Shown in pieces: positions 1 through 4,616 of a DNA stretch of 41,835 nt. The position numbers were made by a program, and so were the translations under genes. How positions within the stretch are numbered: position 1 is the stretch's first letter; each line of letters starts with the position of its first letter. The notes beneath the pieces are model-generated. The model did not search any database, was not told the DNA's origin, and saw only the letters and a list, made by a program, of their open reading frames with translations. The stretch lies in assembly GCA_007118135.1 (NCBI GenBank), contig SKSE01000023.1, forward strand, positions 1-41,835, given 5' to 3'. The stretch comes from Bacteroidales bacterium. Its GTDB lineage: Bacteria; Bacteroidota; Bacteroidia; Bacteroidales; UBA7960.

Positions 1-795
1 AAGCGATGTTTGCCAGTCGATGCTGAGAAAATCACAGATGTCGTGGTTTATCTCTTTGATGCCTGTTCCGATTCCTTTGGGGAAAAAGATAAATGGTGTT
101 CCTGTGGCGCGAACAGCATTAGCAATTTTTTTCACCGATGGCATGAATACTTCCTGGTAAAATGTGAAGGGTACACTGCCGGCATGGGTGTCGAACAACT
201 GGAAAGCCGAGATACCATGTTTTACCTGTTGCAAAGCATATTCGATGGTTAGCTCGGTAACGGCTTCGGCCATTTTTTGGGTAAGATGCTTTTCTTTGAA
301 GAAAAATCTCTCGGCATCCGCAAACTGAGAGCGGGTTCCCAGTCCCTGTATCATGAACAGCATGACCGTAAGCGGGGCACCTGAGAAACCAACCAGCGGA
401 GTATTATTCCCCGGAGTTTCAAGAATTTTATCAATGGCATTGTAAATGTATTGAAGCTTACCTGGATCGGGATTTAACATTTGCAACGGATCATTCACAT
501 CCTTGAGCGGTTGTTCGAAAACCGGCCCCTGGTCGGTAAAATCAAGACCCATACCCATGGCATAGGGGATCACCAGTATATCGGAAAACAATATGGCGGC
601 ATCCACACCCAGGTCATCAATGGGCAGCAACGTAACTTTGGCTGCCAGTTCGGGATCTTTCATCAGTTGCCAGAAGGTATATTTTTCCTTCAGTGCATTG
701 TATGAGGGCAGCACCCTGCCTGCCTGCCGCATAAACCATATAGGAGGGCGGTCAGTGGGTTTGCCTTGTAGTGTATCGAGAAATATGTTTGACAT
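1..795 (-). CDS. hemE: Uroporphyrinogen decarboxylase (3' end truncated by window edge)
   Basis: Not in ORF track; manual minus-strand translation from ATG at 795 gives MSNIFLDTLQGKPTDRPPIWFMRQAGRVLPSY...DAAILFSDILVIP...LVGFSGAPLT...FQLFDTHAG, the UROD signature motifs; open to position 1; follows hemL. Confidence 0.95.
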   Translation of the reverse strand, partial: MSNIFLDTLQGKPTDRPPIWFMRQAGRVLPSYNALKEKYTFWQLMKDPELAAKVTLLPIDDLGVDAAILFSDILVIPYAMGMGLDFTDQGPVFEQPLKDVNDPLQMLNPDPGKLQYIYNAIDKILETPGNNTPLVGFSGAPLTVMLFMIQGLGTRSQFADAERFFFKEKHLTQKMAEAVTELTIEYALQQVKHGISAFQLFDTHAGSVPFTFYQEVFMPSVKKIANAVRATGTPFIFFPKGIGTGIKEINHDICDFLSIDWQTSL

Positions 796-852
796 TCTTT
801 AAAATTTAAAGTTTAAAATTCGAACCGAGGCGCAGCCGAGCTCAGCGAAGCT

Positions 853-901
853 AATATCGAATATCGAATATCGAATATCGAATATCGAATATCGAAATCC
901 G
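853..901. repeat. Heptamer tandem repeat (AATATCG)x6 plus degenerate AAATCCG
   Basis: Six perfect copies at 853-894 read directly, one variant at 895-901; hemL-hemE intergenic. Confidence 0.95.
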
Positions 902-914
902 AAACCATTAATTT

Positions 915-998
915 TTCAACTCTTCAACTCTTCCACTTTTCAACCTTTCCACTCGCTTATCAACTTATCCACCCTTCAACTCTTCAACTCTTCCATCG
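915..998. repeat. Degenerate octamer tandem repeat (TTCAACTC-like, ~10 copies) overlapping the hemL stop
   Basis: ttcaactc ttcaactc ttccactt ttcaacct ttccactc ... atcaactt atccaccc ttcaactc ttcaactc ttccatcg; 21-nt exact direct repeat at 915-935 and 975-995. Confidence 0.85.
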
Positions 999-2271
999 CC
1001 TTCAAGCTCGCTTCCACCGTTTTATCAATCTCTTCATCGGTGATGCATGCAGGAATAAAGGCTGCCTCAAATTGAGAGGGTGGCAGGTAAATGCCTTGCT
1101 CCAGCATGGCTTTGAAATATCTGCCGAATTTTCCGGTATCGGATTGATTGGCGTCATCAAAGGATTTAACTGTATTCAGTTTTGTGAAAAACAGTGTGAT
1201 CATAGAACCTACCCTGTTTACAACACCTTTGTGCCCGGTTTGTTGCAGGTTATCTCTGAAACCTTTTTCCAGGCGCGCGGATTTCTCTTCCAGGTTTTTG
1301 TGGAATCCAGGTGTTTCGTCAATGATTTTAAGGGTTGCCAGTCCGGCAGCCATGGCCAGCGGGTTACCGGAAAGAGTACCGGCCTGGTAGATGGGTCCTG
1401 CCGGAGCCAGCTTTTCCATGATCTCTTTAGGTCCGCCGTAGGCACCTACAGGAAGCCCGCCGCCGATGATTTTCCCCAGACAGGTAATATCAGGAGTGAT
1501 TCCAAAATGCTCCTGTGCTCCTCCTTTGGCCAGTCGGAAACCGGTCATTACCTCATCAAAGATGAGCAGGGTGCCGTATTTTTGTGTCAGTCCTCTTAAC
1601 CCATCCAGAAATTCCTTATCGGGAATGACCACACCCATGTTTCCGACGACGGGTTCCAGAATTATGGCTGCAATATCATCACCATGTTTTTCAAAAAGTT
1701 TTGCTACACCTTCAAGATCGTTGTATCGGGCTGTGAGAGTATCCTGGGCGGTTCCCTGTGTAACTCCCGGACTATCAGGCAAACCCAGTGTCAGTGCACC
1801 GGAACCGGCTTTAATGAGAAAACTATCGGCATGTCCGTGATAGCAACCTTCAAATTTGATGAATTTGTTGCGGCCGGTATATCCTCTTGCGAGGCGAAGG
1901 GCACTCATGCAGGCTTCGGTACCTGAATTTACCATGCGCACAATGTCCATAGAGGGTTTCATCTTTTTGATTTGTTCAGCCATATCGGTCTCACCCACGG
2001 TGGGGGCACCGTAGCTGGTTCCGCGCTGCGCGGCTTCGGTAATGGCCTTAATAACACGCTCATCGGCATGACCTACTATCATGGGTCCCCATGATGAAAC
2101 GTAATCGATATATTCATTTCCGTCGATATCCCACATTTTGGCCCCTTTGGCCCTGGTAATAAAAACCGGATTTCCGCCCACACTTTTGAATGCTCTGGCT
2201 GGACTGTTCACCCCGCCGGGGAGGCTCTTCCGGGCCCTGTCGAATTGGTTGATGCTTTTGGTGAAGTTCAT
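976..2271 (-). CDS. hemL: Glutamate-1-semialdehyde 2,1-aminomutase
   Basis: [50 protein letters not shown] and [12 protein letters not shown] motifs; hem operon context. Confidence 0.98.
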
Positions 2272-2357
2272 ATATGTATTAAGTTGTTAATTTTTAGTTT
2301 AAAAGCAAATAGATGTAATGAATTTTTCAATCTGCAAACATATAAATTTTTGCCGAC

Positions 2358-2759
2358 CTACTCCCCCTTCGAAGGGGGCCGGGGGGATGTCTTGCGTTTT
2401 ATTTCATCAATAGTAATTTCCAAGGCTCTCAAAACGTTGAACATATCTTTTTTAACCTGCAAATCCGGAAAACGCAAAAAAGTAATCTCATACTCTTCAA
2501 GTTCCTTTTGTCTGTTACTATCATAATCAATTTTATGGTCATGACTTAAGCCATCGATTTCTATGGCAAGTTTTAATTCATGGCAGTAAAAATCAACAAT
2601 ATAATTCAATAGTGGTACTTGACGGTGAAACTCAACACCATAGGCCTTGCCTTTAATTTCTTTCCATAAAAGTATTTCCGAAAGAGTGCTTTGTTTTCTT
2701 AAGATTCGCGCAAGTTCTTTTAGTTTGGGGTTGTATGGGATTATTTTGTTGTGGTTCAT
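2358..2759 (-). CDS. DUF559 / Vsr-like endonuclease domain protein
   Basis: LKELARILRKQSTLSEILLW...FHRQVPLLNYIVDFYCHELKLAIEIDGLSHD...YDSNRQKELE...FLRF is the typical DUF559 (PD-(D/E)XK-like) pattern. Confidence 0.9.
   Translation of the reverse strand: MNHNKIIPYNPKLKELARILRKQSTLSEILLWKEIKGKAYGVEFHRQVPLLNYIVDFYCHELKLAIEIDGLSHDHKIDYDSNRQKELEEYEITFLRFPDLQVKKDMFNVLRALEITIDEIKRKTSPRPPSKGE
2360..2390. repeat. Left REP-like inverted repeat with internal hairpin CCCCCTT-CG-AAGGGGG
   Basis: Read directly; encodes the DUF559 C-terminal tail TSPRPPSKGE. Confidence 0.92.
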
Positions 2760-2771
2760 TTTAATGTTTTA

Positions 2772-2802
2772 ACATCCCCCCGGCCCCCTTGAAAGGGGGA
2801 GT
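2772..2802. repeat. Right REP-like inverted repeat with internal hairpin CCCCCTT-GA-AAGGGGG
   Basis: Read directly; lies 12 nt upstream of the DUF559 start codon. Confidence 0.92.
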
Positions 2803-2833
2803 TGGCCGGTGGTTGGTTCAATTTTCGAATTTA

Positions 2834-3820
2834 TCAAAAGCTTTTCTTTCCCTCCAACCACTGCGCAACCTCCTTCGCATGATACGTAATAATTATATCC
2901 GCTCCGGCGCGGCGAATGGATTTCAGGATTTCTTTGGTGATGCGTTGACCGTCAATCCAGCCTTTTTCTGTGGCGGCTTTTACCATGGAGAATTCACCGC
3001 TGACATTGTAGGCGGCAATGGGAATATTGAACTGGTCTTTTGCCCGTTGAATGATATCCAGGTAGGATAAGGCCGGTTTTACCATGATGATATCTGCACC
3101 TTCTTCAATATCCAGTTCGATTTCGCGCATGGCTTCGTTGCTGTTGGCGGGGTTCATCTGGTAAGTCTGGCGGTCGCCAAACTGCGGTGCGCTTTCAGCT
3201 GCTTCGCGGAAGGGCCCGTAAAAGGCTGATGCATATTTGGCCGAGTATGCCATGATGGGAATATTGCTGAACCCTTCATCGTCCAATGCTTCGCGAATAT
3301 AGGCCACTCTGCCGTCCATCATATCGCTGGGGGCTACCATATCCACTCCGGCTTTGGCGAAGGCAAGGGATTGTTTGGCCAGGGTTTCCAGCGTCAGATC
3401 ATTATCTACATCGTTGTTGACAATGGTGCCGCAATGTCCGTGGGTAGTATATTCACAATTGCACACATCGGCAATAACATACATTTCGGGTAGTTCTTTT
3501 TTGATGGCCCAGATGGCAGTGGGTATGATGGCGTTTTCTTCTGCACCCACCAGGCCATGCTCGTCTTTGGTTTCAGGAATACCAAACAGTAAAACGGACT
3601 TGATTCCCAATTGATAAAGCTCTTTGCACTCCTGCACAAGCATATCAACCGAAAGCTGATAGTTGCCGGGCATGGAGTTTATGGGGTTTTTAACATTCTG
3701 ACCCGGGCAGGCAAACAGAGGCATCACCAGATTTTCAAGCGAAACTGTGGTTTCGTTTACCATCGCCCGGATCACCGGGTTGGAACGAAGTCTTCTTAAA
3801 CGTGTGGTTGGGAAATACAT
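2834..3820 (-). CDS. hemB: Porphobilinogen synthase (delta-aminolevulinate dehydratase), Zn-type
   Basis: RLRRLR start, DVCNCEYTTHGHCG Zn motif, SDMMDGRV, YSAKYASAFYGPFREA, MVKPAL; start moved to MYFPTTR (3820) to avoid overlap with hemD. Confidence 0.97.
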   Translation of the reverse strand: MYFPTTRLRRLRSNPVIRAMVNETTVSLENLVMPLFACPGQNVKNPINSMPGNYQLSVDMLVQECKELYQLGIKSVLLFGIPETKDEHGLVGAEENAIIPTAIWAIKKELPEMYVIADVCNCEYTTHGHCGTIVNNDVDNDLTLETLAKQSLAFAKAGVDMVAPSDMMDGRVAYIREALDDEGFSNIPIMAYSAKYASAFYGPFREAAESAPQFGDRQTYQMNPANSNEAMREIELDIEEGADIIMVKPALSYLDIIQRAKDQFNIPIAAYNVSGEFSMVKAATEKGWIDGQRITKEILKSIRRAGADIIITYHAKEVAQWLEGKKSF

Positions 3821-3863
3821 ATCTTGACTTTTTGAGTTGCTGTAAAAACTAAGTTCAAAGTTA

Positions 3864-4616
3864 CTATTCAGAAAAATAATCATCAATAGCCTGAACCAGC
3901 GATTGAGCGGAAGGGTAGGGGGCTGTAACTGCTACATCATAACCACATTCCTTTATAGCAAGGGCCGTCGTATTGCCTATGGCTGCCAAAAGCAACGATT
4001 CTGCATTTTGAAAAGCATCCAGAAAAGCATAAAATCCCGAGGGCGATGTAAAAATACAAATATCTGCTTCTCTGTTTTTTACCAGTCCGGCTATCTGTTC
4101 ATCCACCCTTGAAAGTGGTATTGTTTCATAGACGTTTATCCGTTTAACGGTAGCCATTTCAGAAAGCGTTGTTTCCAGAAAATCAGGAGCTTTGTTACCG
4201 ACAGCAAGTAGTATTTTATTGCCGGCAATGGAGGCATTCTCCAGAAGAAATTTTGCCAGGTCTCTGGCGTCGGTTCCCGGGTTCGGGAATGCCGCTTTAT
4301 GACCGTATTTTTCCAGTTCGGCACCCGTAGCCTGCCCAACCACTGCAATTTTGATGTGGGATGGGAGATTAAAATCACTCTGGAAATCAGAAAGATTTTC
4401 GAAAAATCCTCGCACACCTTTTTTGCTGGTGAATACCAGTAAATCAAATTCTCCCGGCTGGATAAGGCGACTGAGTTCTTCTTCATGAATCCGGATGGTA
4501 CGGGTTTCTATCATGGGAAGATTTAAGGCCTTTGCTCCTTTGGCTTCCAGGAGCATCAGCATTTCCTCCGCCTGATCGGCCGGTTGGGTGGTTATTATGA
4601 CTTTGCCTTTCAGCAT
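3864..4616 (-). CDS. hemD: Uroporphyrinogen-III synthase
   Basis: LVFTSKKGV, AVVGQAT, NVYET, FTSPSG and AAIGNTTA HemD motifs; between hemC and hemB. Confidence 0.9.
   Translation of the reverse strand: MLKGKVIITTQPADQAEEMLMLLEAKGAKALNLPMIETRTIRIHEEELSRLIQPGEFDLLVFTSKKGVRGFFENLSDFQSDFNLPSHIKIAVVGQATGAELEKYGHKAAFPNPGTDARDLAKFLLENASIAGNKILLAVGNKAPDFLETTLSEMATVKRINVYETIPLSRVDEQIAGLVKNREADICIFTSPSGFYAFLDAFQNAESLLLAAIGNTTALAIKECGYDVAVTAPYPSAQSLVQAIDDYFSE

Follow-up and report, generated by a model that had tools for sequence, protein, structure and literature searches.

The window analysed here is the whole 41,835-nt stretch of contig SKSE01000023.1 (assembly GCA_007118135.1; Bacteroidales bacterium, GTDB lineage UBA7960). 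Between hemB and hemL it carries a single small gene for a nuclease-like protein of the DUF559 family, enclosed by two inverted copies of a repeat with the block plan of an intrastrand triplex motif. By its sequence, this locus is one case of a recurrent cassette: triplex motif, DUF559 gene, inverted triplex motif. What the observations presented below establish is the anatomy of the cassette, how widely it recurs, that motif type varies together with protein lineage, the history of the hemB-hemL site and the purifying selection on the gene. The best reading of the system, to which we would give an even chance, is a partnership of a Vsr-like nuclease of the PD-(D/E)XK type with triplex-motif repeats, resembling that of RAYTs (REP-associated tyrosine transposases) with REPINs (doublets of repetitive extragenic palindromic sequences, REPs). 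The DUF559 nuclease may be the missing partner enzyme of triplex-motif repeats. The cassette comprises the following elements, in window coordinates.

2353..2390, plus strand: left arm, on the 3' side of the gene, a triplex motif (inverted-repeat search and block rule)
2353-2362, 2363-2369, 2370-2371 and 2372-2378, plus strand: left arm outer flank, pyrimidine block, first loop and purine block
2379-2381 and 2382-2388, plus strand: left arm second loop (CCG) and mirror G/T block, then GT
2358..2759, minus strand: DUF559 (Vsr-like PD-(D/E)XK) gene, 133 aa (Pfam PF04480)
2760..2771, minus strand: AT-rich 12-nt leader between the upstream arm and the ATG
2772..2809, minus strand: right arm, on the 5' side of the gene, the same motif (inverted-repeat search and block rule)
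2809-2800, 2799-2793, 2792-2791 and 2790-2784, minus strand: right arm outer flank, pyrimidine block, first loop and purine block
2783-2781 and 2780-2774, minus strand: right arm second loop (CCG) and mirror block

A sequence-only reading of this DNA had described 31-nt inverted repeats around a lone 133-aa DUF559 gene between hemB and hemL, and both observations were borne out. The 31-nt core of the arms matches at 29 of 31 positions, with both mismatches in the first loop as described, and the inverted repeat reaches 38 nt per arm (89% complementary, with the arms 381 nt apart). At up to three mismatches the 28-nt arm core occurs at two places in the window, against 0.00 expected from 100 shuffles. 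The DUF559 gene is the sole open reading frame (ORF) between the arms, and the left arm encodes its final 11 codons and stop. It is also, as had been noted, richer in AT than the hem genes, with a G+C content of 33.6% in its core compared with 49.4% for hemL, 47.3% for hemB and 40.2% for the genome. Likewise, no target-site duplication was seen at the cassette ends in the window sequence. A search of window positions 700-4000 against Rfam gave no match at E <= 1.

The arrangement recurs around DUF559 genes of other species. A scan of one genome per species, using a four-sequence alignment as query (a seven-sequence alignment was too diverse), returned 598 DUF559 relatives, of which the best 80 were kept; these are mostly from Bacteroidota, with a few from other phyla. 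Sixteen of the 80 loci were set aside (ORF <95 or >175 aa, contig edge, or N), leaving 64. A strict motif, hairpin plus GGGG, lay within 110 nt of a gene end at 46 of the 64 loci and in only 3 of 123 control windows placed 400 nt away, so that the flanking of DUF559 homologs by co-varying inverted motifs, which the sequence-only reading had anticipated, is found. The strict motif was upstream at 34 loci, downstream at 33 and on both sides at 21, and at 17 of these 21 two-sided loci both motifs turn their G-run side towards the gene, as in the window. Ungapped inverted matches between the flanks scored at least 18 at 21/64 loci versus 0/121 shifted controls; among ten clear inverted matches (score >=27), seven end 2-17 nt before the ATG and the other three at 29-70 nt. 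Window-type C-terminal tails are frequent and correspond to the arm read in frame. At other loci the stop codon precedes the arm, and on this ground the arm is conserved at the nucleotide level.

Each arm of the window cassette consists of a 7-nt pyrimidine block, a 2-nt loop, the purine complement, a 3-nt loop and a third block that mirrors the purine block (G to G; T or A to A). Judged by the criteria in the available text of PMC4666352, both arms offer seven allowed triads in the class II purine-motif order (G*G, A*A, T*A), and their stem of 7 nt and loops of 2 and 3 nt lie within the ITxF ranges (stem 6-15 nt, loops 1-6 nt). The mirror rule was tested anew around the 80 DUF559 homologs. 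Of 257 hairpins with a pyrimidine arm near gene ends, 95 were followed, across a loop of 1-6 nt, by a fully allowed third block, compared with 4/168 when the segment was taken 40 nt further on and 4/257 when the tails were shuffled. The rule was kept over 13 different stems, and an A in the purine block was nearly always answered by T. Since a plain hairpin does not predict a mirrored third block, the arms are, by sequence plan, class II intrastrand triplex motifs and more than hairpins. Their earlier description as hairpins was correct in that the stems are conserved and the loop varies; it left the third block undescribed, and the fold energy of the arms is undistinctive. Single-strand DNA folding energy was no better than that of dinucleotide shuffles and was dropped as evidence; in these alignments it is covariation, not energy, that speaks for arm structure. 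Second-loop variants TTA and CCG both occur in the motif family of the window genome, and in the accessible part of Holder et al. (PMC4666352) these same loops define types A and B of TMECO, the triplex motif of Escherichia coli.

We compared motif type with protein phylogeny on a tree of 57 proteins, built from residues 1-115 in order to leave out tails encoded by the arms. Motif type changes 11 times on this tree, compared with at least 27 times in 500 label shuffles, while the host genus label changes 25 times. Mucilaginibacter has two protein clades and two motif types, and Flavobacterium has three protein clades, likewise each with a motif type of its own. One congener, G020, encodes five DUF559 paralogs (34-92% identical to the window protein), each with its own motif subtype, and the longer-stem subtype is dispersed genome-wide in G020 only, among five congeners listed in full. 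On this tree, motif type follows the DUF559 protein lineage and not the host. The co-variation shows co-inheritance of motif and gene as a unit; function is not implied, and relatedness alone can give few changes.

The DUF559 protein matches Pfam PF04480 over residues 12-113 (90.4 bits against a cut-off of 20.6, E 8.8e-26) and PDB entry 3hrl_A over residues 27-120 (E 1.5e-11), and D56, E67, D69, G70 and H73 are invariant among seven aligned homologs. The window genome has one copy of the gene. Between this genome and G020 the ratio of nonsynonymous to synonymous substitution (dN/dS) is 0.075 at a dS of 0.64, and nucleotide identity is 87.8% for the DUF559 gene, 81.4% for hemL and 83.6% for hemB. 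The low dN/dS, together with an identity above that of hemL and hemB, argues that the gene is functional, old and under purifying selection. In three runs of soda-lake and alkaline-sediment metagenomes (X1-X3) a second DUF559 variant was seen, with 22-23 differences over ~230-250 nt of window 2354-2604 and at greater depth than the window's own sequence. The arm positions there reach a summed depth of 900-1600, the motif being highly repeated in these communities.

A selected, single-copy and vertically inherited gene is also what one would expect of an ordinary Vsr-like repair or housekeeping nuclease, with arms that are cis-acting parts of its own transcript or locus, inherited with the gene, and with dispersed copies that are functionally unrelated. 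On this view, the arms would form an RNA stem that insulates or stabilizes the hem operon transcript or is processed out of it. The predicted fold of the cassette RNA does have a terminal stem of ~40 bp enclosing the ORF, at -145.5 kcal/mol versus -101.2 +/- 6.2 for shuffles (z -7.2), and an RNA-library run contains an exact contig covering 2361-2742, which is a weak hint of expression only. DUF559 proteins have moreover been read as Vsr-like repair enzymes, for example VsrA in the available text on Caulobacter (PMC12907096). However, a cis-acting stem needs complementarity alone, and the mirrored third block kept over 13 stem types is left unexplained, as are the dispersed solo copies and gene-less doublets described below. 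The repair role itself finds little footing in this genome, in which, at 88.7% completeness, no C5-cytosine methyltransferase was found (the sole match was sub-threshold and looked RsmD-type), and GCCGGC is not depleted (observed/expected 0.92). We regard this explanation as unlikely. GCCGGC adjoins the motif, in the outer flank, at 8 of 17 copies, and several others are one transition away from it (e.g., 2353-2359 and 2803-2809); the Caulobacter protein has been functionally tied to YGCCGGCR methylation in the same partial source (PMC12907096). The GCCGGC-like flank may be a methylation site, a point that we offer as an idea only.

Outside the cassette the motif forms a dispersed family, in keeping with the REP-like unit proposed from the sequence. 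The window genome (G000), a draft of 334 contigs and 3.0 Mb that is 88.7% complete, contains 17 copies, namely the two arms and 15 others, the latter all between ordinary genes; the number is a lower bound, with 4 of the 17 within ~200 nt of a contig end. Counted as pattern matches, in which overlapping variants are counted twice, the motif occurs 18 times in this genome and in 10 of 21 congeners (36 in G020, 38 in G012, 22 in G002, 16 in G003, 10 in G017 and 2-4 in five further genomes, including 4 in G019), with none in eleven others. A mirrored control of the pattern gave no match in any of the 22 genomes. Of 14 sites fetched from G012, nine proved to be inverted (+,-) doublets whose G-run sides point towards an AT-rich spacer of 24-28 nt; this is the cassette geometry, but with no gene inside. 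In five of these doublets a TTA loop is combined with a C(A/T)G loop, and by common spacer and flanks there are at least three subfamilies; doublet spacers and cassette ends have ~5 nt in common only, which is not decisive. Strict-pattern pairs at gene-size spacing, read off the pattern lists, enclose DUF559 in 1/1 case in the window genome and 3/3 in G020. Among motif sites with both flanks mapped to one contig, those common to the window genome were 0/2 in G012 and 2/3 in G003; with G020 they were 2/9, one more being ambiguous (both flanks on one contig of the window genome). By this comparison, motif sites turn over between relatives.

In this genus, periodic 6-8-nt low-complexity runs, hairpins of several families and triplex motifs together make up a mosaic intergenic DNA, which at orthologous sites varies strongly from species to species. 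Exact insertion borders and target-site duplications could not be defined at polymorphic sites, since the intergenic regions are repeat mosaics. In G020, a mirrored control pattern (G-run, G-run, C-run; class I order) has 29+20 matches, with none in four other congeners, and the long-stem motif forms tandem arrays on contigs C2 (104-nt period) and C205 (64-nt period).

The triplex-motif doublets could also be taken for MITE-like (miniature inverted-repeat transposable element-like) or recombination-prone elements that are moved by something else, whether host recombination, replication slippage at non-B DNA or another enzyme, with DUF559 as hitch-hiking or addictive cargo in the spacer. The doublets of G012 lend themselves to this view, at least three subfamilies having spacer and flanks in common in a genome where no intact DUF559 gene was found; the genome search for DUF559 was lossy, its PF04480 control having missed E. 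coli ycjD, so that absences are soft, and the pattern stands. So do the mosaic structure of the intergenic regions, the replacement of the cassette by a PF05635 gene in G017 with a break inside the left arm, and the local instability to which TMECO loci are linked in the available text of Holder et al. (PMC4666352), where no enzyme is given. What cargo would leave unexplained is that the gene between such pairs is always DUF559 in the window genome and G020, that every DUF559 clade has retained a motif type of its own through long divergence, and that DUF559 is under strong purifying selection. On balance we consider it improbable.

The hemB-hemL site records the history of the cassette. Minus-strand gene order in the window is hemA, hemC, hemD, hemB, DUF559, hemL, hemE, and the immediate neighbors lie outside the cassette.

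976..2271, minus strand: class-III aminotransferase in the hemL position, downstream neighbor (domain match and synteny)
2834..3886, minus strand: hemB (ALAD), upstream neighbor (domain match and synteny)

DUF559 matches were obtained in 7 of 21 congeners, the close ones only in G020 (92% aa identity) and G003 (87%, broken), both between hemB and hemL. The state of the site in each genome is as follows.

G000 (window genome): intact cassette, intergenic region of 562 nt
G020: intact cassette, 572 nt
G003: N-terminal half of DUF559 and right arm replaced by another repeat module
G017: PF05635 (23S-rRNA-IVS-protein) gene at the site (E 5.8e-12), with the junction inside the pyrimidine block of the left arm
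G012: 95-nt site retaining a decayed outer half of the right arm
G005, G021, G014, G015 and G013: short sites, 29-107 nt long, that lack the gene
G007, G018, G009 and G011: unrelated filler

On the simplest reading of these states, the cassette was inserted once, in a sub-lineage, and was afterwards retained, decayed or replaced. Short hemB-hemL sites that lack the gene, the existence of which bears on the earlier proposal of an insertion, are present in relatives, in other species only. The same proposal, that a unit of ~443 bp is itself a mobile element, is not supported: each genome has a single copy, which three species have received by vertical descent at one and the same site, under the purifying selection given above and with no target duplication.

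Several further features of this region were observed. Upstream of hemL, a short motif at window 2330-2345 is kept in congeners with and without the cassette, and we take it to resemble the Bacteroidetes -7 promoter element; from this resemblance, a separate promoter below the cassette probably serves hemL. The hemE-hemL intergenic region (window 796-975) contains a GC-rich palindromic module followed by ~7 tandem 7-nt units, and modules of this type also stand in for part of the cassette in G003 and border the PF05635 gene of G017. The window genome itself has two PF05635 (four-helix-bundle) genes, of which C196:22452-22763 lies inside 50-nt inverted arms of periodic G-rich/C-rich heptamers and C163:66-383 is bracketed by a 19-nt inverted periodic repeat.

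A free-standing homing endonuclease that cuts empty doublets, its gene being copied in by repair with the arms as homology, would also place DUF559 between paired motifs. A homing endonuclease of a group I intron (3r3p) belongs to the Vsr/DUF559 clade, as the accessible part of PMC3424549 has it, and the empty doublets match the cassette in geometry and arm types. However, the arms offer only ~40 nt of homology, and recent paralogous copies are lacking, there being one gene in the window genome and five in G020 that are 34-43% identical with different motifs; the cassette is intergenic and the paralogs are old. Nor is a contig joint that skips the cassette available to show an empty allele: contigs from four sequencing runs break at the arms, none spans the whole stretch and none joins across a skipped cassette, which makes them uninformative on empty alleles. 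We consider homing very unlikely. Three element classes do not fit: an insertion sequence or transposon with terminal inverted repeats (no transposase domain in the enclosed gene, whose Pfam match is DUF559, no target duplication and a single copy), a RAYT (the enclosed gene is DUF559 and not an HUH Y1, IS200-like, transposase) and an rRNA intervening-sequence element, of the kind cut out by RNase III at its stem (the cassette lies between hemB and hemL, not in 23S rRNA, and its stem is predicted only).

The same two parts are present together in E. coli. In strain K-12, ycjD is a DUF559 gene with a hairpin remnant at its stop codon and a type-A TMECO ~190 nt downstream. Of 5426 complete E. 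coli genomes, 3378 have the gene; according to the available text of PMC12817139, the eef operon takes its place in other phylogroups. We counted TMECO motifs in six strains with the published consensus; for K-12, 55989 and IHE3034 our counts equal those printed in the accessible part of Holder et al. (PMC4666352).

K-12: ycjD present, 23 TMECO motifs
55989: ycjD present, 29 TMECO motifs
Sakai: ycjD absent, 11 TMECO motifs
CFT073: ycjD absent, 2 TMECO motifs
IHE3034: ycjD absent, 1 TMECO motif
UTI89: ycjD absent, 1 TMECO motif

The trend fits a partnership of ycjD and TMECO, although phylogenetically it counts as about one contrast, and in Sakai the motifs persist with the gene absent.

Returning to the partnership of nuclease and repeat, the mechanism that we envisage would run as follows. 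A single-copy, vertically inherited and selected DUF559 nuclease, encoded between two cognate motifs, would recognize the folded motif, as hairpin or triplex, and nick at or near it. Such nicking would cause motifs, both solo and in doublets, to be copied, gene-converted or turned over, and would keep the DUF559 gene embedded between two motifs. Binding or cutting of the motif by the nuclease, and the spread or upkeep of the repeats thereby, are thus what the sequence comparisons lead us to suggest. A RAYT or IS200-type enzyme, which could have accounted for the repeats in its stead, does not do so: the sole Y1/RAYT gene (PF01797) of the genome, G000:C6:11707-12048, has several copies of 2-3 other palindromes on either side, and this layout is that of a classical REP-RAYT system, distinct from the triplex-motif family.

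A number of observations weigh against the partnership. None of the 15 other copies in the window genome has a second copy within 90 nt, so that no doublets were seen here. In G012, which is 100% complete and has 38 matches, we found no intact DUF559 gene, only a truncated N-terminal remnant beside motifs; nor was an intact gene found in G002 (22 matches), G017 (10) or G019 (4), in which the motif is present, subject to the softness of absences noted above. The 11 motifs of Sakai point the same way. At 18 of the 64 homologous loci the strict motif is on neither side, and at some loci the motifs are in direct or reversed arrangement. Co-variation of arm and gene is also expected if the arms are merely cis-elements inherited with the gene, and the co-occurrence counts among congeners and E. 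coli phylogroups are not independent, giving about one contrast each.

If the partnership is true, it would be a second kind of domesticated enzyme-repeat system beside RAYT-REPIN, in which the nuclease may read non-B DNA. To our knowledge, hardly any biology has been assigned to DUF559, large as the family is. Triplex-motif (BoxC/PIT) repeats have been known since the 1990s, from hundreds of genomes and at unstable loci, and the available text of Holder et al. names no origin, function or enzyme for them and found no association of TMECO with mobile elements (PMC4666352). A specific, co-varying pairing of DUF559 with triplex motifs would give both a testable function, and since K-12 holds both parts (ycjD and its 23 TMECO motifs) the idea is directly testable at the bench. 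Our full-text literature searches found no paper linking DUF559 or YcjD to triplex-motif repeats. More tentatively, and as a generalization that we would sooner doubt than assert, BoxC/PIT/triplex-motif repeats at large could be replicating or maintained partners of DUF559 (YcjD-type) nucleases. They would constitute a second enzyme-repeat symbiosis, mechanistically distinct from RAYT-REPIN, with a nuclease that reads a non-B (triplex or hairpin) fold and with each DUF559 lineage having its own motif; the hem-operon cassette would be the resident 'master' copy here.

Among known systems, the 23S rRNA intervening sequences (IVSs), which reportedly carry a small ORF of the PF05635 family (Ralph and McClelland 1993 is said to describe them), have in common with the cassette a small ORF inside inverted repeats and a long predicted transcript stem, and a PF05635 gene occupies the hemB-hemL site in G017. 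The cassette differs from them in that it does not lie in rRNA, encodes another ORF family and has arms that are triplex motifs. With Vsr and the Vsr-like DUF559 proteins (Vsr of E. coli, VsrA of Caulobacter in the available text of PMC12907096, and 3hrl of Neisseria gonorrhoeae), the window protein shares the Pfam DUF559 domain, the 3hrl match and the D...ExDG..H core. The Vsr paradigm has no triplex-motif bracket, whereas the window locus has one, and the partner cytosine methyltransferase was not found in the 88.7%-complete genome.

BoxC/PIT/TMECO repeats, as far as the accessible text of Holder et al. 2015 (PMC4666352; Hoyne et al. 2000 is cited there) describes them, have the same block plan as the window arms and are likewise intergenic and multi-copy, in both orientations and in inverted pairs, at loci that vary between relatives. 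The TMECO consensus of Holder et al. is not matched by the arms, which differ in stem sequence and length (seven triads in the window motif versus nine in TMECO), and the hosts are Proteobacteria for TMECO versus a Bacteroidales metagenome-assembled genome here. In the same partial text there is no mobile-element link and no mention of ycjD or an endonuclease, whereas the window motif brackets a DUF559 gene.

In organization, the REP/REPIN-RAYT systems are the best fit, as the sequence-only reading had proposed, and 'transposon' is not. Such systems are said to have been described by Nunvar 2010, Bertels and Rainey 2011 and Ton-Hoang 2012. Both they and the window system have a single-copy, vertically inherited and selected gene flanked by inverted, dispersed and structured repeats, gene-less inverted doublets elsewhere (here in G012, none in the window genome), and enzyme lineages with their own cognate repeats. 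They differ in the enzyme, an HUH Y1 transposase in RAYT and, in the window cassette, a Vsr-like protein with predicted PD-(D/E)XK nuclease activity, and in the repeat, which in the window has a third, mirrored block that sets it apart from REP.

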